Shown here piece after piece: positions 8,377 to 36,192 of a stretch of 64,000 nt of DNA. The position numbers and the translations under genes are program-made. Within the stretch, counting starts at the first letter, position 1, and each line of letters begins with the position of its first letter. This stretch comes from Chthoniobacterales bacterium (lineage in GTDB: Bacteria > Verrucomicrobiota > Verrucomicrobiia > Chthoniobacterales > JAFAMB01). Location: contig DATNNZ010000051.1 of NCBI GenBank assembly GCA_035601575.1, positions 2,148-66,147 on the forward strand, read 5' to 3'. The notes under the pieces were generated by a model. That model saw nothing but the letters and a program-made list of their open reading frames with translations, was not told the DNA's origin and ran no database searches.

Positions 8377-8386
8377 TCGATAAGAT

Positions 8387-17124: not shown

Positions 17125-17149
17125 GAAGCTGCTTTAGAAGACCAAGCGA

Positions 17150-17815: not shown

Positions 17816-17843
17816 GGTCGTGAAATTCAGTTGCTGACGTAAG

Positions 17844-19890: not shown

Positions 19891-21183
19891 ATGCGCAAGT
19901 TTTCGTTGGTGGCTTTGGCGCTACTAGTCTGTTTTAATTTAGCGGTCGGTTACAAAGTCCTGACGAGCAGCGCATCCGCTGAATCGAGCGAGACCGAGTA
20001 CAGCAATCTATCCATCTTTACGCGTGCTCTTCAGCTGGTCCGCCAAGACTACGTCGACGAGAACAAGGTCGCGCTCAAAGACCTCACTTACTCGGCCCTT
20101 CGCGGAATGCTTAACAGCTTGGATCCGCACAGTCAATTCATGGAGCCGACGGACTTCCGGGACATGCAGGATGACACCCGCAGCGAATTTGGCGGTCTAG
20201 GGATCATTGTTTCGACCAAAGATGGAATTATTACCGTCGTTACTCCAATGGAAGATACTCCTGGGTTCCGGGCGGGAATCATGCCGGGAGATGAAATCTT
20301 GCGGATCAACGGAAAGGTGACCGATCGGATGAGCCTGCAAGACGCTCTCAACCAGCTCCGAGGCGAGCCGGGCCAGCGCGTGACGCTCACAATTTATCGC
20401 CCGCCGTCCAAAGAGACGAAGGAATTCAACCTTCAACGTGAAATCATCAAGGTCGCGAGCGTAAAGGATTCGAAAATACTGGATGCAACGGCCACCGGGA
20501 AGTTCAGGATCGGATATCTCCGAATCACTCAATTTAATGAGCCGACTGCGCAAGAGCTGCGGCAACGATTGGACGAACTCCAGGCGAAGGGCATGCAAGC
20601 TCTGATTGTCGATCTCCGAAATAACCCGGGAGGATTGCTCAACAGTGCGGTCGACGTCTGCGCCAATTTTGTTCCTCCCAAGACAATGGTGGTTTACACG
20701 GAAGGTCGCGGAGGGTCGCAACACCGCGAGTATCTCACCGATCGCAATGCTAAGCCGGTCGCAAATTTTCCACTGGTGTTGTTGGTTAATTCGGGCAGCG
20801 CGAGCGGTGCGGAAATCGTTGCCGGGGCGCTGAAGGATCTCAACCGAGCTATCGTCGTGGGAGACACTACGTTCGGCAAAGGCTCTGTTCAGACGGTGAT
20901 CCAGCTGCCGGACGGTTCCGGTTTGCGCCTGACTACTGCTAAATATTACACGCCGAGTCGACAAGTAATCCATCAAAACGGTGTCACTCCAAATATCAAG
21001 GCTTCGCTCACACCGGATCAGGAGAAAGCGCTGGTTTTGCGGCGTCGTGATGGTCCGTTGACCGGGGACGAACAGAAACTGGCGAACGAGCAGCGAGATG
21101 CGCAACTCGACCGCGCAATCGACGCCTTGAAGAGCGTAATGATCTACACTCAGAACGCCGGTAATACAGAGCAGGGACATTGA
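19891..21183 (+). CDS. ctpA: carboxy-terminal processing protease (S41 family)
   Basis: A PDZ segment followed by LIVDLRNNPGGLL and LVNSGSASGAEIVAGALKD. Confidence 0.9.
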   Translation: MRKFSLVALALLVCFNLAVGYKVLTSSASAESSETEYSNLSIFTRALQLVRQDYVDENKVALKDLTYSALRGMLNSLDPHSQFMEPTDFRDMQDDTRSEFGGLGIIVSTKDGIITVVTPMEDTPGFRAGIMPGDEILRINGKVTDRMSLQDALNQLRGEPGQRVTLTIYRPPSKETKEFNLQREIIKVASVKDSKILDATATGKFRIGYLRITQFNEPTAQELRQRLDELQAKGMQALIVDLRNNPGGLLNSAVDVCANFVPPKTMVVYTEGRGGSQHREYLTDRNAKPVANFPLVLLVNSGSASGAEIVAGALKDLNRAIVVGDTTFGKGSVQTVIQLPDGSGLRLTTAKYYTPSRQVIHQNGVTPNIKASLTPDQEKALVLRRRDGPLTGDEQKLANEQRDAQLDRAIDALKSVMIYTQNAGNTEQGH

Positions 21184-21250
21184 TTAAGAAACGCGAAATG
21201 CGGAACGCGGAAACAAGGTATGCAATCTGGAATTCGAGGGACGTAATCGG

Positions 21251-22252
21251 GTGGACGGGCCGCTGGTTCTGGCGATAGAGACTTCATGTGACGAAACCGC
21301 AGTAGCGCTACTACGGAATCGGAATCGACTCCTGGTTTCGAAGATAGCGAGCCAAAGCGCGATCCACGATCGTTACGGCGGTGTCGTCCCGGAGGTCGCG
21401 TCGCGCAATCATCTGGTTAAGCTACCGTCGCTAGTGGAGACCGCTTTGGCCGAAGGGCAAGTTCGATTAACCGATGTCGATTGTGTCGCAGCTACCCGCG
21501 GACCGGGGTTGCTCACTTCTTTACTGGTTGGGTATGCGGCAGCCAAAGGAATCGCGATCGGGCTGCGAAAGCCATTTATCGGGGTCAATCATCTAGAAGC
21601 GCATCTGCTTTCGCCGTTTTTCAACGATCCAGGCGGGCCGCAGCCATCCGTGGGCCTGATCGTCAGCGGTGGTCACACTCAGCTGGTTGCCATGGAGGCG
21701 GTGGGCCAATACCGGATATTAGGTTCCACCCTTGATGACGCAGCCGGTGAGGCGTTCGACAAGGTGGCGAAGCTGTTGGGTCTCCCATACCCAGGCGGAC
21801 CAAGTATCGAGCGCTGCGCCCAACACGGCAATTCCGCCCGTTTTGATCTTCCTCGCAGCATGCTGGGAAGCGGCGATTTCAATTTCAGTTTCAGCGGCCT
21901 GAAGACCGCGGTTCGCTATCTGTTGCCCAAGTTATCTGGGGATTACCAAGCCGACTTGTGTGCTTCCTTCCAGGAAGCGGTGGTCCAAGTCTTGGTCCGG
22001 AAAACGATTGCAGCCGCTAAATCGGTTGCCGTCCAAACCGTGACCGTGAGCGGTGGAGTGAGCGGTAATTTGCGGCTACGTCAGGAGATGGAGCGTGCGG
22101 CGATAGCTGCCGGGATTAATCTACGTTTGGCCGCTCCGGCATTAACGACCGACAATGCCGCGATGATCGCGTTTGTAGCAGGAGAACGTTTCCGATCTGG
22201 ATCATTCACCGCTTGGACCCAAGACGCAGACCCGAATTTGAAGTTGGTCTAA
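21251..22252 (+). CDS. tsaD: tRNA N6-adenosine threonylcarbamoyltransferase
   Basis: VLAIETSCDETAVAL, GVNHLEAHL, and SGGV.N..L motifs. Confidence 0.93.
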   Translation: MDGPLVLAIETSCDETAVALLRNRNRLLVSKIASQSAIHDRYGGVVPEVASRNHLVKLPSLVETALAEGQVRLTDVDCVAATRGPGLLTSLLVGYAAAKGIAIGLRKPFIGVNHLEAHLLSPFFNDPGGPQPSVGLIVSGGHTQLVAMEAVGQYRILGSTLDDAAGEAFDKVAKLLGLPYPGGPSIERCAQHGNSARFDLPRSMLGSGDFNFSFSGLKTAVRYLLPKLSGDYQADLCASFQEAVVQVLVRKTIAAAKSVAVQTVTVSGGVSGNLRLRQEMERAAIAAGINLRLAAPALTTDNAAMIAFVAGERFRSGSFTAWTQDADPNLKLV

Positions 22253-22372
22253 GGCAGCGCGGGCGCGTCCGCCTTCACAAACTTTCGCACCATGATCTTG
22301 CCAATTCGAGCAAAGACTGTCAGGCCGCCAGGCCATCTTGAACCGCACCTTCGGCGCTGCTAAAGGAGAGAC

Positions 22373-23287
22373 GTGACACTTTTGTTGATCGACGGACACT
22401 ATTATGTCTATCGCTCGTTTCATGCGATCCAGACCTTGAACAACTCCCGAGGCGAACCGACGAACGCCATTTACGGATTTGTAAAAACGGTCCGCAAGAT
22501 GATCAAAGATTTGCGGCCGGATCTCGCTGCGGTTTTCTGGGACGAAGGAATGCCGGAAAGAAGAGTTCAATTGCAGCCGGCTTACAAGCAGCAGCGCGAA
22601 GCCATGCCGGAAAAAATGATCCCGCAATTAGACTTCATTCGTTCCTTTGTAGGACCGATGGGAATTAAGTCCGTAGCGCTGCCCAATACGGAAGCAGATG
22701 ATCTAATGGGGTGTTATGTCCTGGCGGCGGCGCAGGATCAGCACGACGTCATTTTGTCGACGAACGATAAAGACCTTTTCCAACTGGTCAGCGACAAAGT
22801 CAAAGTCTACTCAACCAATAAGACGGACCTGAAGCACCCGAAGGACTCGCATGCGCTTCTCGGCGTTGAAGAGGTGACCGAAAAATGGGGAGTGCCCCCA
22901 GCCGGGATCGGCGAGATATTAGCCCTGACCGGAGACTCGGTCGACAATATTCCAGGAGTTGACGGTATTGGCTCGAAGACGGCTTCGGCTCTTATTCGGC
23001 AATTCGGCACTATCCAGAACTTGCTGGACAATCTGAAAGACGTATCCAGCGAAAAGCTGAGGAAACGGTTGGAGGAAAGCCGGACACAGATTTTGCAAAA
23101 TCGCGAGATGGTCAAGCTTGATCTGGACCACGCATTGCCGGTGCCAATCGCGGATCTCAAGATCCAACCGATATACGATGAATATCTCAAAGGACTCGAG
23201 CAGTGCGAATTCAAATCGTTGCTTGATGAAATTCGCGCAGAAGCGGCCAACGCTGCGCGCAGCCAGGGAGAATTGTTCTTTTCCTGA
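22373..23287 (+). CDS. stand-alone 5'-3' exonuclease (Pol I N-terminal/FEN-like)
   Basis: LLLIDGHYYVYRSFHA, EADDLMG, TNDKDLFQLV, and the H3TH motif LTGDSVDNIPGVDGIGSKTA. Confidence 0.88.
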   Translation: MTLLLIDGHYYVYRSFHAIQTLNNSRGEPTNAIYGFVKTVRKMIKDLRPDLAAVFWDEGMPERRVQLQPAYKQQREAMPEKMIPQLDFIRSFVGPMGIKSVALPNTEADDLMGCYVLAAAQDQHDVILSTNDKDLFQLVSDKVKVYSTNKTDLKHPKDSHALLGVEEVTEKWGVPPAGIGEILALTGDSVDNIPGVDGIGSKTASALIRQFGTIQNLLDNLKDVSSEKLRKRLEESRTQILQNREMVKLDLDHALPVPIADLKIQPIYDEYLKGLEQCEFKSLLDEIRAEAANAARSQGELFFS

Positions 23288-23381
23288 TTTAGCTCGCGCA
23301 TGATTTAGGCTAAGGCTCTAGCGAAATGCCAAATCATCAAATGGATGAAAACTCCTTGAATGATTCGTAGGCCTGCTGGTA

Positions 23382-23948
23382 GTGAAGCCAAAAGATAACA
23401 AATCGCGGGCGAGCGTAGGCGTCCTGCTCGGTGCAATTGCTTTCGTGATAGGAGCAATTTTGACCTGGGTCATTCTCACACAATTGTCCGGGCGCTTTCC
23501 AGCCTCTCCGTCGAGAGAAAAAGACGTTCTTCCGGATGTCTCCATGCTCGCTCCGAGCCAAAGCGCGGTGATTCTGGGCAACTGGTATTTCGATCATCAT
23601 GAGTGGGCCAAGGCGACCGAACAGTATCGAAAAGCGATCAGTCTTGGGTTGGACAATGCCGACATTCGTTCCGATCTCGGTAGTGCGCTCCGCTTCAACA
23701 ACCAACTGGAAGCGGCGGCGGCTGAGTACGAAACCGCGCAACGCGAGAACCCAGAGCACGAAAATAGTTTGTTCAACCTGGCAACCCTTTATCTCCAATC
23801 CTTAAATCAGCCCGATCGTGCCGTCGCGGTTCTGGAACAATTCAAAGCCAGGTTTCCCCGCAGCGGAGCGATTCCGCGTGTAGACGAGCTTCTCGAAGAG
23901 GCAAGGAAGAAGGGAGCGGCGGTGTCGCCCACGTCGGGTAACGGCTGA
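23382..23948 (+). CDS. membrane-anchored TPR repeat protein
   Basis: N-terminal TM segment followed by TPR-like repeats (AKATEQYRKAISLGLDNADIRSDLGSAL..). Confidence 0.7.
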   Translation: MKPKDNKSRASVGVLLGAIAFVIGAILTWVILTQLSGRFPASPSREKDVLPDVSMLAPSQSAVILGNWYFDHHEWAKATEQYRKAISLGLDNADIRSDLGSALRFNNQLEAAAAEYETAQRENPEHENSLFNLATLYLQSLNQPDRAVAVLEQFKARFPRSGAIPRVDELLEEARKKGAAVSPTSGNG

Positions 23949-24115
23949 GTACCGGATCAGAATGCAGAATCTCGAATCCAGAAGGTAAGATCTAGGATTT
24001 AGAAGCCAGCGTGGATACTCCTCTGGCAGTTAGGACAAAGCAGTCCGGTAAGCGTTGTGCGCCAACATAGCTAAACGGCGTACTGTGAGCCGCCGCCTTC
24101 ATCTGGCTTACACGC

Positions 24116-24253
24116 TTGGCTCACACATCCTCTCGCTGTCGCTCGACGATGTGCCGCCGTCGCTGCGCTATGGCGCGCCCTAGCCATGCAGTCAAAGAAA
24201 ATCACCAGACCAGCCGCGACGCAGGCTTGGCGGAGTCGGATTTCGCCCTACCT
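24116..24253. repeat. island repeat element, copy 1 (direct repeat of 30805-30942)
   Basis: 24116-24188 is identical to 30805-30877 (73 nt). The next ~61 nt are about 80% identical by eye. It ends in the TCGCCCT motif. Confidence 0.95.
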
Positions 24254-24297
24254 TTCCGCCTGTATCGCCCTACCTTTTCTGCGTGTTTCGCCCTGTC
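24243..24297. promoter_or_regulatory. three iteron-like TCGCCCT(A/G) motifs at 22-23 bp spacing
   Basis: tcgccctacct occurs at 24243 and 24265, and tcgccctgtc at 24288. The same motif recurs at 26339, 26380 and 30932. Confidence 0.45.
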
Positions 24298-24326
24298 GGG
24301 GCGTGCTACAATCGTCCTTCCCGTTT

Positions 24327-26186
24327 CTAAAGCCACCGTCTCCAGAATGGGTACCAGGAGGGCGTGTTTCCATCCGCATCGACCGGATGGATTCGTCTCT
24401 TGCGATAGCCTTTTTCGCAATGTTTGACGATCGCCGTGAATTTGGGCAGCGACATCAATTCGAACGGTTTAATCAGATATTCCTCTTCGCGGGTACGAGT
24501 TGTACTGTGGCTACCACGGCCGCGAGTGTAGGATCGTTTCCAGATCATTCGTTTTCCGATGAAATCAGCGGAGCTTTCCGCACACGCCCGGTCGGCCGCC
24601 TTGAAAATGATACGGTTTCGTAAATTAAGAATAGTGACTTCCGCTTTTTCCTTCGATCCGAGGGCCGGCAGAAATGAAAGTTTCGATTGCGCCGCAAGCA
24701 CTGTGGTCGTCTGCGCCTGGCGAATAACATCGACATTGCCGTCTGATTCAGTAATGAAACGTTGAGCTTCGTCTTGCCAGCAAACCAAGAGGTTATCGTC
24801 TTCGAATTTCCGGCTTCCAGGTGGCCGTGGATCGAACCGGCGCAAAGCGTGAGTATAAAAAAGGAGTTTGAGAATCGTGGTGATATAGCGGCGTTCGGTC
24901 TGATATTTCTGGGGCAAGGAGACGCAGATGATGGCGCCTTCATCCAAAGCCGCAAATTCAAAACTATTCTCCTCCGCACCGAATACTTCGCTAATCTCAG
25001 GATTGGTGAAGTAATTAAGATAATTGTAGATCGTCGAAATCACGCCCCCGAGCTGTTCCGCCGGTTGATGCAAAAACCCGTTCAGGAAATGATCGTAACA
25101 TTCGCGAGCGTCCGGATTACCTGCATTCTTTAGCGGTTCCAGTTGTTGAAGCATCGCCCTGAGCACCGGTTGATACTGCAGCATTTCCAGGAGGTGGTGC
25201 ATTGTTGGCACCAGCCCGAGCAGCCGAAAAAATTGGATTCCTCGTCCGATATTCGCGTGGGCCTGGGTTTTGAAAAAACCCTTATCTTCGGTGCCAGAGG
25301 TCAGAGATGAGGCGGTATCAACAATGACGGTTGCATAAGTCGACCATGGTATCGTTTCATCGGAGAGGAGATTAAAGCGGGTCGGCGGGGTCCAATCTTC
25401 AGATACGCGATCCGGTCTGGTTTGCAGAAGTAACAGATCCTGTTCGCGTCCGTATCTCTTAGCCATCTTCACCAGCGTTTCGTGATAAATTCCCTTCTCA
25501 TCACAACAGAGACCTCCCCAGTCTGGCTCATTCCGAAAGACGCTGTGGAGCAGAGCATTGATGGCAAACGTTTTTCCAGCGCCGGTATCGCCGGTCACAA
25601 GCCAGCCACGGCAGAAATCGTTTCGATCCCAATGAAAACCGGCCAATGAAGCGGAGATTGAAGTGCGAGAGCGTCCGGCCGCGGAGTAGAAGGCGAGGGG
25701 TAGACTAACCAGGATCGGAGCGATGCTGGCCCAGCCAATGATCGGGTAAAAAAACCAGCTGAAACTAAGTAGTATGCCCGCGAGCAGCAAGACCGTGGGC
25801 GAGAACAAAAAGTCGAATCGTTCCCTTTGGCGTTCCGCGTCGATCCAGCGCCGTGCTCGATCGACTGCCCGAAAGAGCGACGTCTCGCTCGCGACGTAAC
25901 GACGCACATAGCAAAGCGTGCCGCCAAAGCGAATCTGCAGAAGAAAACGAGGAAGCGCGATTGTCCCCGTATCGCCGGACCGGACGAGCGGAAACAAAGG
26001 CTTTGCGCGAATCTGAAAGCCTGACCGTTGATCGACCTCGACAAAGGCGGTTCCGGGCGAGTAGTTAGGCAGCCGCAGGATGGTCCCGTCGGGTCGACGA
26101 TAAGAAAGCGGATCGGGAAGCTCGGAATTGACGAAGCGTTCAGAGCGCTGGAAAGGATTCCCAGTAGTTTTCGCGCTTTCCCACAT
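24327..26186 (-). CDS. type IV secretion coupling protein-like P-loop ATPase (TraD/TraG/VirD4-like) with an extra N-terminal domain
   Basis: Walker A VTGDTGAGKTF and Walker B LLVCWQDEAQRF. Two TM segments precede the ATPase, after a soluble stretch of roughly 130-160 aa (depending on which start is used). The track ORF starts at 26273; I prefer MWESAKTTGNPF at 26186 because it aligns with the truncated paralogue. Confidence 0.6.
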   Translation of the reverse strand: MWESAKTTGNPFQRSERFVNSELPDPLSYRRPDGTILRLPNYSPGTAFVEVDQRSGFQIRAKPLFPLVRSGDTGTIALPRFLLQIRFGGTLCYVRRYVASETSLFRAVDRARRWIDAERQRERFDFLFSPTVLLLAGILLSFSWFFYPIIGWASIAPILVSLPLAFYSAAGRSRTSISASLAGFHWDRNDFCRGWLVTGDTGAGKTFAINALLHSVFRNEPDWGGLCCDEKGIYHETLVKMAKRYGREQDLLLLQTRPDRVSEDWTPPTRFNLLSDETIPWSTYATVIVDTASSLTSGTEDKGFFKTQAHANIGRGIQFFRLLGLVPTMHHLLEMLQYQPVLRAMLQQLEPLKNAGNPDARECYDHFLNGFLHQPAEQLGGVISTIYNYLNYFTNPEISEVFGAEENSFEFAALDEGAIICVSLPQKYQTERRYITTILKLLFYTHALRRFDPRPPGSRKFEDDNLLVCWQDEAQRFITESDGNVDVIRQAQTTTVLAAQSKLSFLPALGSKEKAEVTILNLRNRIIFKAADRACAESSADFIGKRMIWKRSYTRGRGSHSTTRTREEEYLIKPFELMSLPKFTAIVKHCEKGYRKRRIHPVDADGNTPSWYPFWRRWL

Positions 26187-26300
26187 GGAGGAAACAGTAG
26201 TCGATTGACATATAATAACAAGCCAAAAGATAGTTGCGTAATATTTACCCTGGTTGCGACCGATGGAGTCCACGTGTCGCTCAAAATCCGGGGAGGTGCC

Positions 26301-26349
26301 GGCTCACACAGCTTTCCCGCTTTCGCTCGAGCTGTGTGTCGCCCTACCT
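26301..26349. repeat. island repeat element, copy 2 (short, degenerate)
   Basis: ggctcacaca..cgctttcgctcga..tcgccctacct shares both ends of the 24116 and 30805 element but lacks the middle. It lies about 115 nt upstream of the coupling-protein start. Confidence 0.6.
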
Positions 26350-26399
26350 ATCGTGCTTCCACCGCGCGCTGCTGACTGGTCGCCCTCAGCTAGTTCTGG

Positions 26400-27386
26400 T
26401 TACTGGACCTTTAGTTCTGTTACAAAAGACTCTTCACCTTTGGCAAATGCGATCCAAACCGAGTGCGTCTTCGGGTCGACGGCGAGCGTGTGGGTGCCGG
26501 CCGGAGTCGCAACGTCGCCGAGCGATTTTGCGGCTTCCTCGGTTTCTTCCAAGACGGTGAGCTTTCCTTGTCCGGAGGCACAGTAGATACGCTGGTTTCC
26601 GGGATCGAACGCGATCTGATCCACTCCTTCGGCGATATCGACTGAACCCAGCGATTTTCCAGAAACAGAGTCCAATACAACCAGTTTACCGTTTTTTCCG
26701 GCGGAAAACAGCCGATGGGTTTTCGGATTGAAGGCTAAGCCGTGAGGGCCCTGGGCTGGGATTGTTGACCAGGTAGCCGCGACCGAATTTGGTCCGGGGT
26801 CAATGACCAGCGTGACCGGTTGAGACTTGATGTTCTGAAACACCTTGTCACTGATCGGATCGTAGACAACGAACTCCGGATCGGCTGGAATTTTGATGGC
26901 GGTGACGATTTTTTTGGTGCTTGGATCAACGACCCAAAGGTCTTGTCCATCGTCATGGCAAACGTAAACCAATCCATTCTTTGGGTTATAGGCGAGCGCA
27001 TCGGCTGGTCCAGGTAACGAGACCGTGCCGGTTATCTCGAGAGTCTGACGATTAATAATCGCGAGCTTATGCTCGGCGCTGATACTGGCGTAGTACTGGT
27101 TGTGATCGTTATCGACCACGGCTCCCTGGATCGTACCGGTACTCACGCTCTTGATCAGCTTTCCATCCGGAAGACTGATGATATCCAAGGTTTTGTTGCC
27201 AGTGTGAGCGGCCAAAAGGCGATTCAATTTTTCATCGACTTGCAGGTAATCAAATCTTCCCTTGGTTCCGGGCAAAGCAATTGGCTGACCGAGAGTTAAT
27301 GGTGCGGGCTCAGCCAAAAGTGCTGTTGGCAAAGAGAGCACGAAAACCGCGATGGAAAAGCAAGCGCTTGTAAGGTTCGTTTTCAT
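26400..27386 (-). CDS. secreted YVTN/YncE-like seven-bladed beta-propeller protein
   Basis: Signal peptide and repeated ~40-aa blades (..G..P.G.A.D......YV.....). It begins 22 nt downstream of the TonB-dependent receptor. Confidence 0.7.
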   Translation of the reverse strand: MKTNLTSACFSIAVFVLSLPTALLAEPAPLTLGQPIALPGTKGRFDYLQVDEKLNRLLAAHTGNKTLDIISLPDGKLIKSVSTGTIQGAVVDNDHNQYYASISAEHKLAIINRQTLEITGTVSLPGPADALAYNPKNGLVYVCHDDGQDLWVVDPSTKKIVTAIKIPADPEFVVYDPISDKVFQNIKSQPVTLVIDPGPNSVAATWSTIPAQGPHGLAFNPKTHRLFSAGKNGKLVVLDSVSGKSLGSVDIAEGVDQIAFDPGNQRIYCASGQGKLTVLEETEEAAKSLGDVATPAGTHTLAVDPKTHSVWIAFAKGEESFVTELKVQ

Positions 27387-27408
27387 GATGATGTAGTTCG
27401 ACCGAGTA

Positions 27409-30219
27409 TTAAAACGTAAACTTCATTCCTGCCTCGTAAGTGAAATCGTAGTACTCCTGCTGGATCACGCGATCGCGTCTACCTTCATAGATTCGCCAAG
27501 GCGCATCGGTCAGATTCTTGACGTTGAAATAAACACCGACGCCGTTAGCAAAGGTGTAGCTCGCCGCGAGATCCAGGGTCGTTCGAGCATCAAAGTACAG
27601 GTCCGTTCGGGAGCTGGCACCCACCGAGCTCAGATTTTTGTCGGTATGTTGCGCCGCTAAGGTGACGTCGATACCGTACTTTCGATAGAAAATGCTCCAG
27701 TTATACAAATTTCTTGAGGTGAAAGGGAGTTGGGTCGTTTCGCCCGGACGCGCTTCACCTTGGCTATCAACGTAGGTGTAGTTGAACCCGGCTCCGAACC
27801 CATTCAGCGGTCCAGGTAGAAAAGCAAACTGCTGTTGGTAATTAAACTCCACTCCTCGAGCGTGCGCATTTGGGCTGTTGAGAAAGGTTGATTCGTTAAA
27901 GGTTACCCCGTTGATCGGGACGCGAATGGTACGGGTAAAGATGTAGTCCGAGAACTCCTTATCAAAAAAAGCGACGGTGACCAAGGCGCTAGGTGCTGGG
28001 TAATACTCTAGCGTGAGATCGAAGTTGTTGGCGGTGGTCGGCTTGAGGCCGGGATTGCCGGTGACAATCGTCTGGTTGCCTACATTGGTAGTGGACGATG
28101 CAGTGACTTGATTGAAAGCTGGGCGACCAATTGCGGTTGAGTAGGCAAAGCGCGCTTGCAGATTGTCGAGGATTTCGTATCGGGCTTGGAAGGTGGGAAA
28201 GTAATTGATGTAATTGCTGTTCCGGTTCACGAAATGATAGGACGCGGGATTATTAGGATCCGAGCCGGGGGAATTCTCGTTTGCTCCGTAGGTGGCATCC
28301 GTTGCTTCGATCCTTAGTCCGCTGAGCAAGTTCAATTTGCCGAAAGAGATGTCGTACTGGAAGTAACCGGCATAAACGTTCTCGAAGTCATCGAAAAACG
28401 CTTTTCTGCTGGCTACCTGATCGGCCACAAAGCTGCGAACAAAATTGCCGCGATTGGCATCAAAGAATTTACTAACGAGGCCGAAGTCGGGCGAAAAGCC
28501 GAGCTTGTAGTTACCGCTGTAAATGCTGTTGAACTGGTTGCGCGTTACGTCGGCTAACGTGAACGCTCCATTGAAGGCAGTGTAAGTCTCTGGATCGTTG
28601 TAGGCACGCTTAGTCCGGAAACGCAGATTGGTCCCAAATTTGAAGATGCTCGGAAAATTGAAAATCGTGAATGGAACCGTTACATTCGCGCTTCCGGCGA
28701 TTTCCGTATCGGTTGATCCGTTATTATCAAACGATAACTGGTTAAAAGAGTATTTTTTGGGATCGAAAACATCGGAGCCAGCCAGCAGGAACTGCGGTTG
28801 TCTCATGAGTCCTTGGTCGTTGTAAGATATCGTCACATCAGGCTTGGTCACAAAACTGATGTTGGTGTCGCGCGGATTGTAGTCAGTGGCTTGGGCAAAC
28901 GAGCCCTTATAATCGATAATGAAGGGACCCAGATTATTTTTACCGCCTCCCTGCACGATCCAGTTATCAAAATGTTCTTCGTTGTGGCGAATGTTGGAAT
29001 TGAGCTGCGCATCCTTTACCAGAAAGTTGCCCGGGTGTGTCGGATCGTTTTGCGGTTGGAAAAAAGTGCTCCCGTCCGGATTCGTGAGTTGGGTTCCGCT
29101 GCCGTTTGAGCCGTCGAGACCCGAATAATTTTTTATCTGCCGGTCCACGCTTTCCACATAACCAGCATTCACGAAGCTGATGTAGTAGCTGTTTTTGCTG
29201 TCCGGTCGATAGTCGAAAGTTGCTCCGTAACCGTGTAATCGTCGGTTGTATTGGTAACGCCGTAAATCAATGCTGCTCAGGATTTTGTCGGCACCAATTG
29301 GCTGTTTCGAGTCGGCAAACGCTGGTTCAAAATCATCAACCCCGCGCCAATCTTCGTAATAGCTGAATTGACCGAGTACGCCAAAGGGCCGGGGATTGGC
29401 GAGACCTTCGCCGCTGCCTGCGTTTTTTGTATCGATCCCTTTCCCGTCCTTAGAGGTTTCATCAGGGGCGCCTGTCGAATTCGTGGGCGACGAATAGGAT
29501 GAAGCCAAAGGATTCCCTCCAGGTCCTAAGCCGAAGCGAAAACCGCCGATGATTTCGCCATTAATGATTTGATAACGGGGCCGGAGCGGTTCGTATCCGG
29601 TGCCAACGCGTCCTTGGAGGATCGGTTTATCAGAATCGAAGGCACTCCGCGGGGTGAGTTCGATTTGTCCGCCCAAGGCTTCGGCGTCCATCTCCGGCAG
29701 GTTGGTGTCGAACACGGTAATTTGGCTCACCAATCCGGATGGGATCTGGTCAAACGCGACATGCCTTCCGGTCGAATCGGTTGATGGAACTCGCACGCCA
29801 CCAAAAGTGACACCGACCAAGTTGGAATCTAAGCCGCGCACGGTTACAAAACGTCCTTCACCGGTGTCGTTCTGTACGCCGACGCCAGGCAACCGTTTCA
29901 ACGAATCGGCGAGATTCACATCGGGATAGTGGGCAATCTCTTCGGCGGATTGGACTCGCTTGATATTGGGGGCATAGCGCTCCTGCTCGATTGCGGACTC
30001 CTGCCGCGTGGGATCTTCTGCGGTGACGACGACCTGCTCGAGATGGCTCGACGGCGTTGGCGATGCATCTTGTGCGACCGCGGAATGCGGGATCGAAACG
30101 AAGAGCGCCCCCGCCAGAGAAACAAAAATAGGCAGCGATGGCTGCGCAAAAAGTACTTTACGTAGTTTCACGAACCCGGTCCTTCCCCAGATTGGTTTGA
30201 GAGGGTTTAAAACCGACAA
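27409..30219 (-). CDS. TonB-dependent outer-membrane receptor
   Basis: Plug domain (DSLKRLPGVGVQ, FVTVRGLD), a long beta-barrel, and a C-terminal ..YEAGMKFTF. The true start may be the GTG at 30171 (VKLRKVLF.. signal peptide). Confidence 0.9.
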   Translation of the reverse strand: MSVLNPLKPIWGRTGFVKLRKVLFAQPSLPIFVSLAGALFVSIPHSAVAQDASPTPSSHLEQVVVTAEDPTRQESAIEQERYAPNIKRVQSAEEIAHYPDVNLADSLKRLPGVGVQNDTGEGRFVTVRGLDSNLVGVTFGGVRVPSTDSTGRHVAFDQIPSGLVSQITVFDTNLPEMDAEALGGQIELTPRSAFDSDKPILQGRVGTGYEPLRPRYQIINGEIIGGFRFGLGPGGNPLASSYSSPTNSTGAPDETSKDGKGIDTKNAGSGEGLANPRPFGVLGQFSYYEDWRGVDDFEPAFADSKQPIGADKILSSIDLRRYQYNRRLHGYGATFDYRPDSKNSYYISFVNAGYVESVDRQIKNYSGLDGSNGSGTQLTNPDGSTFFQPQNDPTHPGNFLVKDAQLNSNIRHNEEHFDNWIVQGGGKNNLGPFIIDYKGSFAQATDYNPRDTNISFVTKPDVTISYNDQGLMRQPQFLLAGSDVFDPKKYSFNQLSFDNNGSTDTEIAGSANVTVPFTIFNFPSIFKFGTNLRFRTKRAYNDPETYTAFNGAFTLADVTRNQFNSIYSGNYKLGFSPDFGLVSKFFDANRGNFVRSFVADQVASRKAFFDDFENVYAGYFQYDISFGKLNLLSGLRIEATDATYGANENSPGSDPNNPASYHFVNRNSNYINYFPTFQARYEILDNLQARFAYSTAIGRPAFNQVTASSTTNVGNQTIVTGNPGLKPTTANNFDLTLEYYPAPSALVTVAFFDKEFSDYIFTRTIRVPINGVTFNESTFLNSPNAHARGVEFNYQQQFAFLPGPLNGFGAGFNYTYVDSQGEARPGETTQLPFTSRNLYNWSIFYRKYGIDVTLAAQHTDKNLSSVGASSRTDLYFDARTTLDLAASYTFANGVGVYFNVKNLTDAPWRIYEGRRDRVIQQEYYDFTYEAGMKFTF

Positions 30220-30485
30220 GCAGACCCTAGAGTCACCGGATGCGATTTTGTGGTCACATTGATGAAGGGGAGTGACCGGCGTTGCAAAATGAGGGACTTC
30301 AGAAGACTATTTTTTGTCATAGCTGCTTTATCTTGAACGGTGTTGGAGGTTGGACCTGTTCAGAGTGAAGGACGCGGCATCGCCACGTCGTCCACCCATT
30401 TTCGCGGTACTAGAAACCAAGATTGGAATGGCCGGCTCTTTTTGATCCAGTTGCCGGAATTGTTGTCCCAACTGCAGTTCGGACG

Positions 30486-30734
30486 TTAAAAAAGATTTAT
30501 GACATCCGAAGGGGCGTGCCGGACTGAGCCGAACTTACGGCGCCGGCAGCCTGGTAGTGTCCCTCGAGCTCTCGGCCGGGGCGCTAAAGCCCAGCGACGG
30601 CGGCCTGTCGATTGGTTCGCCAGCCGCAGGGTGGCTCCGTCCGGTCGACGATAAGAAAGCCGGTCGGTCAGCTCTGAACTAGCGAAGCGTTCAGAATGGT
30701 TGAAAGGAGTTCCAACGTTTCCCCGTTTTTCCAA
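30486..30734 (-). pseudogene. truncated 5' fragment of a second coupling-protein-like gene
   Basis: GTPFNHSERFASSELTDRLSYRRPDGATLRL aligns with GNPFQRSERFVNSELPDPLSYRRPDGTILRL of the 24327-26186 protein. Nucleotide homology runs about 30623-30715 versus 26070-26165 and then stops. Confidence 0.7.
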
Positions 30735-30804
30735 ACGGAGGAAAGGTTAGATGATTGGGTATGAAAACAAGTCGCGCTACCAATCATCGCAAGATCGTGC
30801 GGTG

Positions 30805-30942
30805 TTGGCTCACACATCCTCTCGCTGTCGCTCGACGATGTGCCGCCGTCGCTGCGCTATGGCGCGCCCTAGCCATGTAGTCAAAGAAAGTCACAAGACC
30901 GGCCGCAAGGTAGGCCCGGCGGAGTCGGGTATCGCCCTGTCT
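30805..30942. repeat. island repeat element, copy 3
   Basis: See copy 1. It lies about 70 nt upstream of the truncated coupling-protein fragment. Confidence 0.95.
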
Positions 30943-30978
30943 CTCTTTGGGCGCGTTCGCCTCCGGTTCGGCGATAAA

Positions 30979-31416
30979 TTACTTACCCCAGCGGTTTACG
31001 ACGGCGTTGGTAACGGCTTCGCGAACAGCTTCGTGTCGCATTGCCCACTGGAAATGATAAATCGGATTTTCGTACTGTTCGGCGAATTCACGCTTCATTG
31101 CTTCTGCGATGCGGGTCGAATCGACTGGCCCTCGCATTCGAGAGACCACGTCCTCGACGATTTCCAAGCAATACAAGATCAGCATCTTTGCTGCGCGCTG
31201 AGAAATATCATCGAGCTCTTCCGTACACACCAAAAAGAAGTTTTCCCAAGAAACCTTTGTGACGCCTTTGAGCCACTGCTCCTTCCCCTCATAAAACACT
31301 CCTTGTTTTCTGTAATTTTCCAGAAAATCTTCCAAACTGAGTGGTTGACCATTGCTCGAGAATGACCATTTCTGAGTTTCTGTCGAGATTTGGCGAGATT
31401 CCTTAGTGGCAGCCAT
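30979..31416 (-). CDS. hypothetical protein, paralogue of 32263-32865 (unrecognised family)
   Basis: It shares ENFF.V, L..YCL and H.F..A.RH..VR.AV.NA..NRWG with the 200-aa protein on the other side of rep. That paralogy supports this strand over the antisense track ORF 30751-31365. Confidence 0.6.
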   Translation of the reverse strand: MAATKESRQISTETQKWSFSSNGQPLSLEDFLENYRKQGVFYEGKEQWLKGVTKVSWENFFLVCTEELDDISQRAAKMLILYCLEIVEDVVSRMRGPVDSTRIAEAMKREFAEQYENPIYHFQWAMRHEAVREAVTNAVVNRWGK

Positions 31417-31485
31417 TTTATTGCTTCTCTTATTGACTAATTCGGTTAAAAGATTCTTGTAACACCCTACCCCAGAGAAAGTAAA

Positions 31486-32220
31486 GTGCGTAAGTATAAC
31501 AAAGTTTTCGGAACGTTACCACTATCGAATCGGGAGGATCAGCTTGGTTTTGGTGACGATCTAATCGAGGCCTACTATAAGCTGACCAAAAACGAACGCA
31601 GCATCGTGATGTCGATCGTCGACCGATTGAAACCCGGAGTGACAGCATTTGAGTTTGACGATTTTGGCCTGCAGTCGGCGGCGCTTAAGCTGCTGACCTA
31701 TCATCGACTGGTTCTACATAATGGAGATAAGCAGAATTCGGTGCTCTATGCGCGCTGGCTCAGTGCCATCACCATGGTAGAGAAGAAGATGATTCTGCAC
31801 ATCGATCCAGGATTACACCGCCATCTTGAGCGCCTTAAAGACCACCAGAGAGAAGATGCGGAGCGATCGTCGGTGAAGTTGGCCAGCCAGTACTCGATTC
31901 GTCTGTACGAATGGGCTTGGAAATGGCGCAACGTGGGACTAAAGCGAATCTCGATACCAAAAATTCGCACAGTTCTCGGCGTGGACGAGGTGCGTGATGC
32001 TCAGGGCAATATCGTGAGCGAGAAATGTTTGGTTCATTGGCCTAATCTCAAGCAACGCGCCATCGATCGGGCCTTGCACGAGATCAATGAAAAGACCGAC
32101 CTCGGGATCCGTCTGGTTGCGGTTGGACAGGCTAAGTATCGGCGGGTGCTCTCGCTCGCCTTTGAGATCAAGGAGAAAAAGAAGCGCACCCGAGGGAACG
32201 GGGCGGCATTGACTAAGTAG
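31486..32220 (+). CDS. plasmid-type replication initiator, Rep_3 (RepB/initiator replication protein) family-like
   Basis: DDLIEAYYKLTKNERSIV near the N-terminus, then SQYSIRLYEWAWKW..GLKRISIPKIRTVLGV....NLKQRAIDRALHEINEKTDLGIRL....KYRRVLSLAFEI. This matches the Rep_3 pattern as I recall it. Confidence 0.65.
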   Translation: MRKYNKVFGTLPLSNREDQLGFGDDLIEAYYKLTKNERSIVMSIVDRLKPGVTAFEFDDFGLQSAALKLLTYHRLVLHNGDKQNSVLYARWLSAITMVEKKMILHIDPGLHRHLERLKDHQREDAERSSVKLASQYSIRLYEWAWKWRNVGLKRISIPKIRTVLGVDEVRDAQGNIVSEKCLVHWPNLKQRAIDRALHEINEKTDLGIRLVAVGQAKYRRVLSLAFEIKEKKKRTRGNGAALTK

Positions 32221-32262
32221 AGTCAGAAGGTCGTTCCACGGTGCGAACGGCCAGCCGAAGAC

Positions 32263-32865
32263 GTGTTCGAAGGGAAACAAATGGGCGACTCACATAAGAA
32301 CTCGCCGGAAACCAACGGAAAAGGATTGAACGCCGATGAGATTCTTGCGCTGCGAGAGTTGCGGCTCAATTATCCGTATAACTTTGCTGAGCCGCCCTAC
32401 CCTCAGATCCATTGGCAGCTATTCGAATTGATCGATCATGCATCCTTCCCATTCGCTAAAACGGATGCCTGTGACAAGTGGAACTGCAGAGAAATCTCGC
32501 CAGAAAACTTTTTTCAGGTTCTCGATCGGGATCGATTGGATGAGCCGCGGTTTTTGAGTGCTTTGACGGTTGGCAAGCTGGTTTGCTACTGCCTTTTGGT
32601 GGCTGAATCGACCAGTGAATCGTTCCATATAGTGGCGGAGGAAGTTGAGCTTCGAGCCGATACTCTGTTGGAGCGAATTCGGTTGAATGCGGAGTATCTT
32701 AGCCTTGGGATCGAAGAACACTCGCCCTGGCACCAGTTCTTTGTTGCTGTCCGACACCCCGTGGTGCGTTGGGCCGTGAACAATGCTTTGATGAACCGTT
32801 GGGGCGCGGAACGCTACCCGGTCAGCAGCCCGTCCGCTCTAGCAATTGAGCCGGACGGTAGATAG
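32263..32865 (+). CDS. hypothetical protein, paralogue of 30979-31416
   Basis: Same conserved blocks as the 145-aa protein. The start could instead be the internal MGDSHK. Confidence 0.6.
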   Translation: MFEGKQMGDSHKNSPETNGKGLNADEILALRELRLNYPYNFAEPPYPQIHWQLFELIDHASFPFAKTDACDKWNCREISPENFFQVLDRDRLDEPRFLSALTVGKLVCYCLLVAESTSESFHIVAEEVELRADTLLERIRLNAEYLSLGIEEHSPWHQFFVAVRHPVVRWAVNNALMNRWGAERYPVSSPSALAIEPDGR

Positions 32866-32975
32866 CGAATTCAGGTGAGAAACAGGCGGTCGTGCCGCCT
32901 CCGCTCTTCGAGCTGCGGCGAGCCCGCAGAGACAAGGCCGCGCCAAAGCGAAGCGACGGCGGGGTTGACAGGCTG

Positions 32976-33323
32976 TTAGAAAATCTCCGATTTTTCCGAT
33001 AACGGCTCCATTAAAATACGGATGCCGATCTGATCTCCAGCGGGGATCGAGGCGACACGAAAATTGGCGAGCTCCTCAAGCAACTGCCGGCGCGCGGTGA
33101 AGGCGCGGCCCAGGGTCAATTCCACATCGGCAAATGTATAGCGAAGAATGATTGACTTCTCGCCGTCGGTATCGATGCATTGGAGGTATGCATACGGGAT
33201 GCACTTCGTTCGCGGAGGTGACGCTAACTCAAATGTGCAGGCAATGCCGGCATGATTTCCGGCGTGCGTTACATACGGTTGGTTTTCAGGCCGAAGAATA
33301 GGTATGGCTCTCGACACGGACAT
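32976..33323 (-). CDS. hypothetical protein (orphan)
   Basis: An ORF with no recognisable motif. It lies downstream of folC on the same strand. Confidence 0.35.
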   Translation of the reverse strand: MSVSRAIPILRPENQPYVTHAGNHAGIACTFELASPPRTKCIPYAYLQCIDTDGEKSIILRYTFADVELTLGRAFTARRQLLEELANFRVASIPAGDQIGIRILMEPLSEKSEIF

Positions 33324-33393
33324 GTAACCGGTTGGCAGTTTCCGAGTACCGCAAGCGGTACCCGACTTACCACGATTGCATTTGTTTCATCAA

Positions 33394-34614
33394 TTATTGC
33401 GTACTTTTTTCAAAAATACCAAAATCAGGTTCGAGCCAGGCGAGCGCTTCGCCGACAAGATAGAGCGATCCCGTCACCAGGATCGGGTCGGGGAGAGTTC
33501 GTGCCTGATCGATGGCGGTTTTTACATTGGGGTAAACTGTGCTCGGCAAATAACTTGGAGCTTTGAGGTCCGAAGGAGAGGCAGATCGATCGTTTTGTAC
33601 CGGCACCAGGAAAAAGCCGCTGGCGATTTGGGACAATGCTTCGAGCATCTGTGAGAGGTTCTTGTCCTTCAAACCGCCGAAAATGACGGTCGGTGTCGTG
33701 CCGCGGTGACATTCCTTCCACGTTTGTACCAATTGCCAACTTGCCGCCGGGTTATGTGCGCCGTCGAGGATCAGATTGGGCGCCACCTGCTGGAACCTTC
33801 CTGGCCAGAAAACGGAGGCCAGGCCGGTCGTAATCGCCTGAGGAGAGATAGCAAGATTAGCCTGGGCGAGCGCGTCGACCGCCACAGCTGCGTTTAACTG
33901 CTGACGAGATCCGGCCAACGCGAGGCGAAATGGAGGAGAGGGAAATTCTGCGTATTGGATCTGAGTGTCGTGGCTCTGTGCGACTGATTCAAACACTCGA
34001 CAAACTTCCGCATATTGGGGAGCCGAGACGACCGGCACCCCTTGCTTGATGATGCCCGCCTTTTCCCGAGCAATCTCGGCGAGAGAATTTCCCAAGATCC
34101 TTTGATGGTCCAGATCTATTGACGTCAGGACGGAAACGATTGGCATGACGATGTTAGTAGCGTCGAGCCGTCCACCCAAGCCGGTTTCTAGAACGACGAT
34201 ATCAACCGCGGATTTGAGGAAATAAAGGAAAGCCAAGGCCATCGTGATCTCGAAAAACGATGGATTTAAATCATGTTCTGAGATCAAGGCCTGAATTTGG
34301 TTGATGCCACGAATGACCTCCTCGTTTGGGATAGAGCGTCGGTTCACTTGAATTCGCTCGTTGTAGCGGACCAAATGCGGCGAGGTGAAGAGTCCGGTCT
34401 TTAGTCCGGCCGCACGACAAATCGATTCGAGCATCGCGCACACCGAACCTTTGCCGTTGGTCCCGGCGACATGAACGAACCTCAACGATTGCTGCGGATT
34501 TCCGAGGACATCAGCTAAAGCTTGGATTCCCGCCAGACCGAGTTTGATGCCACGGGTCTGGGTGCCGTAGAGCCAGCTCAGCGTGTCGTCCAACGCTTTC
34601 TTAGATGGTGACAC
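33394..34614 (-). CDS. folC: bifunctional folylpolyglutamate synthase / dihydrofolate synthase
   Basis: Mur-ligase-type P-loop HVAGTNGKGSV and overall FolC layout. Sits in accD-folC order. Confidence 0.9.
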   Translation of the reverse strand: MSPSKKALDDTLSWLYGTQTRGIKLGLAGIQALADVLGNPQQSLRFVHVAGTNGKGSVCAMLESICRAAGLKTGLFTSPHLVRYNERIQVNRRSIPNEEVIRGINQIQALISEHDLNPSFFEITMALAFLYFLKSAVDIVVLETGLGGRLDATNIVMPIVSVLTSIDLDHQRILGNSLAEIAREKAGIIKQGVPVVSAPQYAEVCRVFESVAQSHDTQIQYAEFPSPPFRLALAGSRQQLNAAVAVDALAQANLAISPQAITTGLASVFWPGRFQQVAPNLILDGAHNPAASWQLVQTWKECHRGTTPTVIFGGLKDKNLSQMLEALSQIASGFFLVPVQNDRSASPSDLKAPSYLPSTVYPNVKTAIDQARTLPDPILVTGSLYLVGEALAWLEPDFGIFEKSTQ

Positions 34615-34617
34615 AAG

Positions 34618-35460
34618 CTACTTTGTTCTGCCCAGGTAATCGAGCAACTGAGATAATGTGGGACGCAGCTCGGAACGACGGACAATCAGATCGATGAAGC
34701 CATGTCCAAGCAGAAACTCGGCCGTTTGAAACCCAGCCGGAAGATCTTGGTGGGTAGTCTCACGGATCACCCGTGGGCCGGCAAATCCCACCATGCATTT
34801 CGGTTCGGCAACAATGAGATCTCCGAGGGAGGCAAAGCTGGCCATCACCCCGGCGGTCGTGGGGTGAGTTAACACGGATATATAAGGGAGCTCAGCCTCA
34901 GCGTGTCGTGCCAAAGCGCCGCTCGTTTTTGCCATTTGCATGAGGCTCAGCATCCCCTCGTACATGCGCGCACCGCCAGACGCCGCCACAATAATCAAAG
35001 GGCGCTTTGTTGCAGTCGCTTTCTCAATAACCCTGGTGATCTTCTCGCCCACGACTGAGCCCATGGTCGCCGCCAGAAAATTAAAATCCATTACCGCAAT
35101 TGCGATCGGCTTCTTTTCAATCTTGCCGAACCCGGTGACGACGGCATCCTTCATGCCGGTCTTTTCTTGATAACTGCTCAGCCGATCCGAATAGGCCGCG
35201 ACTCCGGTAAACTTTAGAACATCCTTTGACGTCAGATTAGCATCGAATTCCTCGAGGGAATCGGGATCCAGAAGATTATGAATACGCTCCGCTGCCGATA
35301 AGGTGAAATGGTGATCACATTTCGGACAAACCTTCAAATTCTTGGAAAGCTCCAGATTGTGAATCACCTCTCCGCACTCAGGACATTTCTGCCAAAGACC
35401 TTCTGGCATTTCACGTTTTTGGGTTCCAGACTTGAGGGAAGGCTTTTGAAAGATTGGCAT
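34618..35460 (-). CDS. accD: acetyl-CoA carboxylase carboxyltransferase beta subunit
   Basis: Zinc ribbon CPECGE..CPKCDHH, then SGGARMYEG. Confidence 0.93.
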   Translation of the reverse strand: MPIFQKPSLKSGTQKREMPEGLWQKCPECGEVIHNLELSKNLKVCPKCDHHFTLSAAERIHNLLDPDSLEEFDANLTSKDVLKFTGVAAYSDRLSSYQEKTGMKDAVVTGFGKIEKKPIAIAVMDFNFLAATMGSVVGEKITRVIEKATATKRPLIIVAASGGARMYEGMLSLMQMAKTSGALARHAEAELPYISVLTHPTTAGVMASFASLGDLIVAEPKCMVGFAGPRVIRETTHQDLPAGFQTAEFLLGHGFIDLIVRRSELRPTLSQLLDYLGRTK

Positions 35461-35472
35461 AACTGGACTGTG

Positions 35473-36192
35473 CTATCCACGGGCAACCGTGACCGCTCGG
35501 ACCGATACCGCACCACCCGAACGCAGAACCTTAGCACATTCGTGCAACGTAGTACCGGTGGTCAGGACGTCATCCACTAACAAAATGCGTTTTCCCAGCA
35601 CAGCGGTACTCTGGCGCAGGTCAAAGGCATTGTGCAAGTTTCGCACCCGGTGGTCTCGATCCAGAATCGTTTGGGTCTGAGTATATCGGTGTCGCCGCAA
35701 ACATTTTAGCAGCGGCTTAGCCGCCCTCCGCGCCACAATTTCAGCCAAGGCGGAGACCTGATCGTACCCCCTTTCTCGTGTCCGAACGGGATGAAGTGGA
35801 ACTGGAACAATTGCGTCGAACGGTTCCTCCGTAATCCGGCGATCGGAGAAGGCGGACCAAAGCCAGTCGGCGATGGTGTTTCGCAAATGAAATTGTCCGT
35901 TGTATTTGAACCGATGAATTAACTCCCGTACGGCGCCTCGAGCCAGACAAGCAGATACCGCACAGTCGAATGCGAAGGCGTTGTCTTCGCAGTGAGGGCA
36001 CTGGAACGGCTCGGCAATCAAACCGGAGAACGGACGGGAGCACGTTCGACAAAACGGTGACTGGATCCGCTGGGCGGTCGCCTGACATTTCGCGCATAGC
36101 CAGTCTCGGTCCAATCCAATTTGGCAGATTACACAAAAATGAGGATAGACCAGATCAGTGATCGTTCGAGAAAGTGCGTGGAGAAAAAGCAC
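35473..36192 (-). CDS. comF: ComF family phosphoribosyltransferase-domain protein
   Basis: N-terminal Cys-rich zinc-finger region and a PRTase motif, ILLVDDVLTTGTT. Confidence 0.8.
   Translation of the reverse strand: MLFLHALSRTITDLVYPHFCVICQIGLDRDWLCAKCQATAQRIQSPFCRTCSRPFSGLIAEPFQCPHCEDNAFAFDCAVSACLARGAVRELIHRFKYNGQFHLRNTIADWLWSAFSDRRITEEPFDAIVPVPLHPVRTRERGYDQVSALAEIVARRAAKPLLKCLRRHRYTQTQTILDRDHRVRNLHNAFDLRQSTAVLGKRILLVDDVLTTGTTLHECAKVLRSGGAVSVRAVTVARG

Follow-up and report, generated by a model that had tools for sequence, protein, structure and literature searches.

A Rep_3-type initiator-like protein and a coupling-protein-like ATPase maintained beside folC–accD in soil Chthoniobacterales

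The stretch of DNA analysed (the window) is 64,000 nucleotides from a Chthoniobacterales bacterium of the phylum Verrucomicrobiota (GenBank assembly GCA_035601575.1, contig DATNNZ010000051.1, positions 2,148 to 66,147, forward strand), and it contains a 9.4-kb block (23949-33393) in which genes of plasmid type lie next to housekeeping genes. Read from left to right, the gene for a TPR protein (23382-23948, plus strand; known from the listing of open reading frames (ORFs) and from profile searches), the left neighbour of the block, is followed by genes for an ATPase resembling type IV coupling proteins (T4CPs), a β-propeller, a TonB-dependent receptor (TBDR), a short ORF, ORF145, a Rep_3-family initiator-like protein (Rep), ORF200 and ORF115, and then by folC, accD, a comF-like and an rce1-like gene. 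The folC–accD–comF–rce1 flank (33394-37081, minus strand) is syntenic in all loci with what is here called the module, the five genes for T4CP, ORF145, Rep, ORF200 and ORF115, while the receptor and propeller genes are cargo outside it.

An earlier note on this DNA, made from its letters alone, had taken the block for an accessory island and had seen in it no integrase, transposase, relaxase or tRNA. This absence is borne out by a Pfam scan of the ORFs of the block, where none of the three domain types was found, and by a tRNA search of the block that found none. Flanking att direct repeats are also absent, the only near-edge repeats (A1 and A3, described below) being inverted, partial and strain-specific. 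Rfam gave zero matches in the window, and PADLOC and PHROGs yielded nothing informative for the block proteins apart from Rep. The description that the note gave of the block was incomplete, as the TBDR and β-propeller genes, which take up about 40% of it, were not on its list.

Gene order and divergence beside folC–accD

A genome scan with an alignment of Rep against one genome per GTDB species gave 35 loci (L003-L037), all from Chthoniobacterales or Verrucomicrobiota soil metagenome-assembled genomes, one per genome, the contigs reaching 0.25-5.04 Mb. In tblastn with the proteins of the window, each locus of sufficient length has the order T4CP(-)-ORF145(-)-Rep(+)-(ORF200)-ORF115-FolC-AccD-ComF-Rce1; about a third of the loci lack ORF200. 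Two others, L001 and L002, on contigs of about 1 Mb, have T4CP(-), ORF146(-), Rep(+), ORF184(+), ORF113(-), folC, accD, comF and rce1. Every occurrence of the module with enough flanking sequence adjoins folC on a chromosomal contig; the right flank is fixed and the left flank, on the T4CP side, varies among sub-lineages. Amino acid identity of distant loci to the window is 78-84% for Rep, 68-81% for ORF145 and 60-72% for T4CP, and in the flank it is 71-79% for AccD, 51-59% for FolC (with most of the gene aligned) and 51-58% for ComF. Gene order kept across distantly related genomes, which the earlier note had itself named as the mark of a core region, is what the comparison gives even where FolC has diverged to this extent. 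With the same folC–accD order in 35 species-level genomes whose FolC has no more than 52-57% identity, and with a base composition that is native (GC content at third codon positions 0.53-0.62 in the block versus 0.57-0.62 in the flanks), the accessory island is without support.

Synonymous divergence (dS) and its ratio to nonsynonymous divergence (dN/dS) were estimated by the Nei-Gojobori method with relatives at four divergence levels, and dS of the module is equal to that of the flanking housekeeping genes. Against L038 the dS values for Rep, T4CP, FolC and AccD are 0.16, 0.27, 0.25 and 0.22, against L003 they are 0.56, 0.67, 0.63 and 0.60, and against L006 they are 1.46, 1.65, 1.80 and 1.82. 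Within the module dN/dS is 0.014-0.044 for Rep, 0.013-0.050 for ORF145, 0.064-0.092 for T4CP, 0.075-0.157 for ORF200 and 0.083-0.169 for ORF115, and for AccD and FolC it is 0.027-0.055 and 0.070-0.117, respectively. Across 20 taxa the Mantel correlation of pairwise protein distances with the mean FolC, AccD and ComF distance is 0.90 for Rep, 0.83 for ORF145 and 0.90 for T4CP (as high in 0 of 2000 permutations in each case). Both Rep and ORF145 evolve more slowly than FolC and ComF, and Rep is slower than AccD too, with a mean protein divergence of 0.16 versus 0.20. Across about 35 species the five genes of the module are undamaged, and the data rule out an element that is in decay or newly acquired. 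Neither of the two origins that the earlier note had offered, a decayed integrated plasmid or a new kind of mobilizable element, is supported by these comparisons, given an order conserved beside folC, dS equal to that of the neighbours, the correlations with housekeeping distances and dN/dS as low as that of AccD.

Rep, the coupling-protein-like ATPase and the orphan proteins

Rep (31486-32220, plus strand) is a protein of 244 amino acids with the two winged-helix domains, WH1 and WH2, of Rep_3 initiators. Its Pfam scores are 30.1 bits for Rep3_N (cutoff 22.4) and 27.4 bits for Rep3_C (cutoff 21.1), NCBIfam RepM matches it at 1.6e-16, and the profile of its family matches R6K π in the PDB at 3.5e-4, so that the Rep_3-like initiator proposed in the earlier note holds when examined by profile searches, as does the coupling-protein-like ATPase considered below. 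Like R6K π, F RepE, pPS10 RepA and Acinetobacter RepM it combines two winged-helix domains in about 240 residues, and its sequence matches are to RepM and to the WH2 of π. Unlike these plasmid initiators it is encoded throughout a clade on the main chromosome, is divergently paired with an orphan gene and has no adjacent conserved iterons or DnaA box; no DnaA box was found anywhere within the block. The 98 homologues recovered are 68-99% identical to it and all are from Verrucomicrobia or soil metagenomes, below which identity falls from 68% straight to 29% (Planococcus plasmids). Rep_3 relatives are present on 1491 plasmid records, and in the plasmid databases all of them are at most 30% identical to the window Rep. 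Scans of IMG/VR with Rep and with ORF145 gave no relatives.

Between ORF145 and rep is an AT-rich divergent control region of 69 bp (31417-31485). The equivalent spacer is 66-72 bp long and AT-rich across loci, and in the 35 loci it has the conserved blocks TGTAACAC and AAAGTAAA-GTG. It also contains a half-site, TAACAC, akin to an inverted repeat in the T4CP promoter.

The T4CP-like gene encodes a membrane ATPase of VirD4/TrwB type. Its full ORF is 24327-26273 on the minus strand, and homologues together with the upstream sequence put the actual start at the ATG at 26186, giving a product of 619 amino acids (24327-26186). Pfam TrwB_AAD_bind (3e-10) and TraG-D_C (9e-8) are both above their cutoffs, and Walker A (GDTGAGKT) and the DE of Walker B are invariant in the 26 homologues compared. 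A sequence search against the PDB gave nothing and the match there is by fold only: although the AlphaFold model reaches only a moderate pLDDT of 66, its ten best Foldseek matches are without exception coupling proteins, namely TrwB (1.6e-7), Cagβ and DotL, which are matched with probability 1.00. The protein is below the NCBIfam cutoffs for every named T4CP family, and PADLOC gives a weak match to mad8 (6.8e-8). In its predicted architecture an N-terminal β domain is followed by two long transmembrane helices (residues 104-167) and then the RecA-like nucleotide-binding domain, with an all-α domain as in T4CPs. TrwB of R388, VirD4/Cagβ and DotL share the predicted helix pair ahead of the nucleotide-binding domain, the Walker motifs and the two Pfam domains; the window protein differs from them in its extra N-terminal β domain of about 100 residues, its own promoter and its vertical inheritance, and in that relaxase or type IV secretion system (T4SS) genes were not found near it. 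The β-sheet domain, confidently modelled at residues 28-98, is atypical for T4CPs and weakly resembles Whirly single-stranded DNA-binding proteins, at a non-significant E of about 0.4. The nearest plasmid-borne homologues (28% identity, 7e-40) are from Opitutaceae, members of the same phylum, where they are on MOBF-type plasmids or next to MobF. These proteins, such as those of the TAV5 plasmid CP007054 and a Termitidicoccus plasmid, accompany a relaxase, whereas the window T4CP is chromosomal, shorter and without one.

Upstream of the T4CP gene is a promoter-like region (26195-26260, minus strand) that is alignable with relatives, and cross-species alignment gives TTGACA-N17-TATAnT at most loci. 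In at least 10 loci an AACA…TGTT inverted repeat with arms of up to 10 bp is located inside the promoter spacer, and it could be the operator at which a dimeric regulator binds, Rep being one candidate.

The earlier note had counted four ORFs without a recognizable family. Three remain in the present count, ORF145, ORF200 and ORF115, none of which has a Pfam, NCBIfam, PHROG or PADLOC family. ORF145 (30979-31416, minus strand), divergent from rep and the most constrained of the orphans, is clade-specific, with 161 homologues each of about 145 amino acids. Its AF2 model is an all-α fold (pLDDT 86, pTM 0.82) for which the PDB and BFVD hold no match. PADLOC gives it a marginal match to DruE (E=0.0056) and, apart from that of T4CP to mad8, no credible match for the other module genes. 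ORF200 (32263-32865, plus strand) is a paralogue of ORF145, with 32% identity to it and a shared C-terminal RxAVxNAxxNRWG motif; a profile search with the two among 1.84 billion representatives gave only 87 relatives, mostly fragments and all unnamed. ORF115 (32976-33323, minus strand), a small protein encoded between the module's other genes and folC, is present in 30 related loci with 18 invariant residues, and a profile search of the PDB with it was empty. A diverged homologue of ORF145 (47% identity) is encoded at 10001-10498 of L164 (ENA ERZ25039463 contig_56749), where it is surrounded by many small ORFs and a 650-amino-acid TnpB/Cas12f-like gene, with no Rep and no T4CP, which hints that the ORF145 family is also found in mobile-element-like contexts.

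The receptor–propeller cassette and the dispersed repeats

The cargo (26400-30219) is about 4 kb long and consists of a secreted YncE-like 7-bladed β-propeller (26400-27386, minus strand), for which NCBIfam gives YncE at 1.9e-13, below its cutoff, and a YVTN repeat, and of a TBDR (27409-30219, minus strand) with Plug and barrel domains (TIGR01782, 1.2e-137). The pair is a commonplace cassette of nutrient-uptake type that resembles yncD/yncE. As in E. coli yncD–yncE, a TonB-dependent receptor is coupled with a 7-bladed β-propeller, though the match is distant and below the equivalog cutoff, and the pair is unrelated to the plasmid-like genes. Neither gene has a counterpart in the 35 species loci, including L003, whose Rep is 96% identical to that of the window.

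On the ORF145 side of the cassette a short ORF (30486-30734, minus strand) duplicates the beginning of the T4CP gene. The truncated second ATPase copy that the earlier note had pointed out is real, 30604-30714 being 78% identical to 26053-26163 with the start codon gone, and it forms part of a start-less pseudogene beside ORF145 at about 30604-30756 on the minus strand. The fragment is 76.5% identical to the 5′ end of the L003 T4CP gene; between the window and L038 it is 81% identical, where genes are 92-93% identical, so it changes at about the neutral rate. The full T4CP gene retains its conserved upstream region, and the fragment, on the other side of the cassette, is explained as having been left behind by the cargo insertion.

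Cassette and fragment are both present in four independent assemblies (L038-L041) in which genes are 92-93% identical to the window at the nucleotide level. An assembly artefact, considered for the TBDR insertion, was rejected on this ground; the insertion is real and took place after the lineage of the window had separated from L003 but before it separated from L038. In L038-L041 the TBDR and β-propeller genes, intact in the window, are each split into several ORFs (L038 6743-9803; L039 6218-9446), which could reflect pseudogenization or shared frameshifts. In two other loci a bioB-like radical-SAM gene for 328 amino acids is located between ORF145 and T4CP (L033 8456-9442, L034 2673-3659), and several more have enlarged ORF145–T4CP spacers. 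This spacer is a recurrent insertion point for other genes, and the T4CP and ORF145/rep genes are therefore separable transcription units with a permissive spacer between them.

The dispersed repeat, repeat A, has a copy A1 at 24116-24256 (plus strand), followed by three tandem 22-nt TTTCGCCCTACC units at 24237-24300, and a copy A2 at 30805-30945 (plus strand), just downstream of ORF145 and the oldest position of the element; the two are 90-92% identical over 134-141 nt. A3 (32935-32962, minus strand) repeats part of the core, 28 nt in inverted orientation, and was not found at the equivalent L038 site. The 23-nt core CCGCCGTCGCTNNGCTNTNGCGC has four copies in the block versus 0.02 expected by chance, those besides A1 and A2 being at 30581-30603 and 32940-32962, and an extra copy with two mismatches is present outside it at 57321-57343. 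At 26290-26360 there are also a REP (repetitive extragenic palindromic)-like hairpin and a partial repeat-A-like sequence with a TCGCCCTACC unit.

A repeated non-coding element in the block had been reported in the earlier note as conserved. The copies are there, and the conservation does not extend to relatives. Compared with L038, L039, L003 and L006, the A1 copy is absent from the same spacer, and the repeats are not conserved in orthologous spacers except for a 39-nt hairpin part in L003 and a degenerate core in L038 and L039, both just downstream of ORF145. An exact-pattern scan found the family in at least 120 soil metagenome contigs (L042-L161), in about twenty of which the similarity extends to 88-137 nt, and none of these repeat-bearing contigs holds a module gene. 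Half of the repeat sites are outside long open frames, compared with 17.5% of the sequence overall. When folded on both strands repeat A has z-scores of +0.8 to -2.2 and is not unusually stable, so that its candidacy as a structured non-coding RNA or an origin of transfer (oriT) was dropped; it has no Rfam match either. Being unconserved in orthologous spacers, intergenic, found without module genes and of ordinary folding, repeat A is a dispersed intergenic repeat of soil bacteria and not an origin or oriT. The family may be REP-like, terminator-like or similar to miniature inverted-repeat transposable elements (MITEs).

The iteron-like motifs of the earlier note correspond to the three tandem 22-nt units, which do exist. 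The first of them coincides with the terminal part of repeat A, and the 92-93% identical relatives have none of the units. Among 36 regions scanned for iterons (35 related loci and the window) 19 have no array and the others have mutually unrelated ones, and TCGCCCYACC was rejected as an iteron as it belongs to the REP-like hairpins and the dispersed-repeat end. Spacer tandem repeats with no relation to each other are exemplified by L036 9327-9470 (about 41 nt, four times), L031 7401-7450 (14 nt, four times) and L034 3676-3735 (15 nt, four times). Inverted GGTAGGGCGAGG / CCTCGCCCTACC hairpin-type repeat pairs are present in spacers at L007 9095-9475, L017 6620-6705 and L022 5330-5410; they look REP-like and share the TCGCCCTACC motif with the 22-nt units of the window.

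Ancestry and possible role of the module

The module is very probably a fragment of an old plasmid or integrative and conjugative element (ICE) backbone that became domesticated beside folC–accD and is now vertically inherited under selection. Plasmid or ICE ancestry of Rep and T4CP is likely, since the nearest plasmid-borne T4CP relatives are on MOBF Opitutaceae plasmids and Rep_3 is a plasmid family. The fragment, comprising T4CP, ORF145, Rep_3, ORF200 and ORF115, would have been captured next to folC–accD in an ancestor of one soil Chthoniobacterales clade and from then on inherited vertically as a selected part of the chromosome, neither mobile nor decaying. Recent steps are the entry of the TBDR and β-propeller cassette between T4CP and ORF145 in the species of the window and the spread into spacers of dispersed-repeat copies, namely A1, A3, the 22-nt units and the copy at 30581.

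In such a module Rep would bind specific DNA sequences through its winged helices. Since the inverted repeat of the T4CP promoter is found in many species and a related half-site is in the rep/ORF145 spacer, Rep is probably the regulator of the module, and it may also open DNA at some site. The T4CP-like protein, to judge from its invariant Walker motifs, would be a membrane-anchored, ATP-driven hexameric translocase that delivers its substrate, DNA or nucleoprotein, to a channel whose genes are located elsewhere, with ORF145 and ORF200 as clade-specific partners. As far as the sequences indicate, the module probably serves a regulated DNA-binding and DNA-translocation function, and its slow, housekeeping-like evolution argues for routine DNA handling rather than defence or selfish transfer. 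A search of the literature yielded no description of this module; domesticated mobile-element genes are known, and the clade-wide, constrained chromosomal pairing of Rep_3 and T4CP with private partners is new.

Several points weigh against domestication as set out here. The genome scan was seeded with Rep, and clade members without the module, including any with empty folC sites, are outside the sample. Neither a T4SS nor a relaxase partner for the T4CP is seen within ±10 kb in the 35 loci, and neither a conserved iteron array nor a DnaA box was found as a target for Rep. The structural model of T4CP is of only moderate confidence, the promoter and operator are deduced from alignments of AT-rich spacers and are not universal, and a simple promoter and terminator scan of the block was at chance level.

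The plasmid-type gene families, the truncated T4CP copy and the lack of an integrase or relaxase are also what would be expected of a recently integrated plasmid in decay, with Rep and T4CP as functionless relics. Five intact genes in about 35 species with dN/dS of 0.01-0.17, dS matching that of the neighbours, native composition and a truncated copy accounted for by the cargo insertion make this vanishingly unlikely. A site-specific integrative mobilizable element at a folC-proximal site, mobilized in trans and with a co-adapted copy in each species, would fit the left T4CP flank that differs among sub-lineages while the right one is fixed, and a coupling protein belongs to the transfer machinery; that ‘all’ loci have the module is, moreover, partly built into a scan seeded with Rep. 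The combination of a replication protein and a DNA-translocase-type ATPase in a chromosome is shared with ICEs, with integrative mobilizable elements and with the actinomycete ICEs (AICEs), of which the pSAM2-like ones pair Rep with a single DNA translocase. Unlike ICEs and AICEs, however, the module is without integrase, excisionase, att sites or tRNA target, and it co-diverges with its host instead of being patchy. Neither a recombinase nor a relaxase was found, nor direct repeats at the flanks or a conserved non-coding block resembling an oriT; its dS tracks that of adjacent housekeeping genes at every distance (with Mantel r of 0.83-0.90), ordinary genes (bioB, TBDR) have been inserted within it, and neither plasmids, viral contigs nor any other genomic setting yielded a copy, all of which renders such an element very unlikely.

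A different possibility is that the captured replicon is now a secondary or conditional, Rep_3-dependent chromosomal origin. A complete Rep_3 initiator more constrained than AccD, the conserved AT-rich 69-bp region beside rep and, in part of the lineage, a gene of ParA type at a distance of about 6 kb would all suit it, and there is a parallel in Sulfolobus oriC3, which with its winged-helix initiator WhiP is a captured extrachromosomal origin in archaeal chromosomes. In both cases a winged-helix initiator of extrachromosomal ancestry is fixed in a chromosome, but unlike oriC3 the module shows no repeats, no skew switch and no evidence of origin activity. Conserved iterons are lacking, with 19 of the 36 regions devoid of an array and the arrays of the others unrelated, as is a DnaA box. 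The GC skew does not change sign across the module, either in the window or in 16 long loci, so the module is not the main origin or terminus; a secondary origin is on balance quite unlikely. The somewhat broader proposition that Rep_3 still acts as an initiator, either at a second conditional origin or in local replication that feeds T4CP export, a chromosome-encoded and relaxase-independent release of DNA, is unlikely as well.

For a chromosomal anti-plasmid or defence module, in which Rep would handcuff the iterons of related plasmids that enter the cell and the T4CP-like ATPase would interfere with transfer, there is the weak PADLOC match of T4CP to mad8, and Rep dimers are negative regulators of iteron plasmids. 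Against it, defence genes do not typically stay at one site with the same neighbours in every locus or encode proteins that change so slowly, no other PADLOC component is present, and no related plasmids are in the databases searched, where Rep identity drops from 68% to 29%; it is highly improbable.

Plasmid Rep proteins and coupling ATPases are usually read as hallmarks of mobile DNA. Here both have long been kept at one chromosomal site, while identity in the neighbouring FolC fell to about 55%, and constraint of this kind implies that replication and transfer proteins of plasmid origin do something for their host, in a clade that is common in soil metagenomes. Gene families alone are thus a poor basis for calling genomic islands. 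The module also brings three orphan families without known fold, one of them confidently modelled. Should Rep fire an origin or feed the T4CP, the locus would be a natural bacterial origin capture or a minimal DNA-export device; a second origin or relaxase-independent DNA release would be unprecedented in bacteria.

Some features of the surroundings can be added. About 6 kb to the right of the module (window 39479-41001) a gene for a ParA-like partition ATPase of 298 amino acids overlaps the start of a gene for 209 amino acids; no ParB domain was found. ParA (70-96% amino acid identity) and the 209-amino-acid protein are both kept in part of the lineage. They may form a partition pair like those of plasmids, or ParA may be an orphan. 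At L003, the nearest relative at species level, an extra small gene, absent from the window and presumably cupin-like from its appearance by eye, is located between the TPR gene and T4CP (6831-7265). The cumulative GC skew of the window, which is without dnaA, has its minimum near 6 kb; every gene at 1106-12948 is on the minus strand and every gene at 13202-23948 is on the plus strand.

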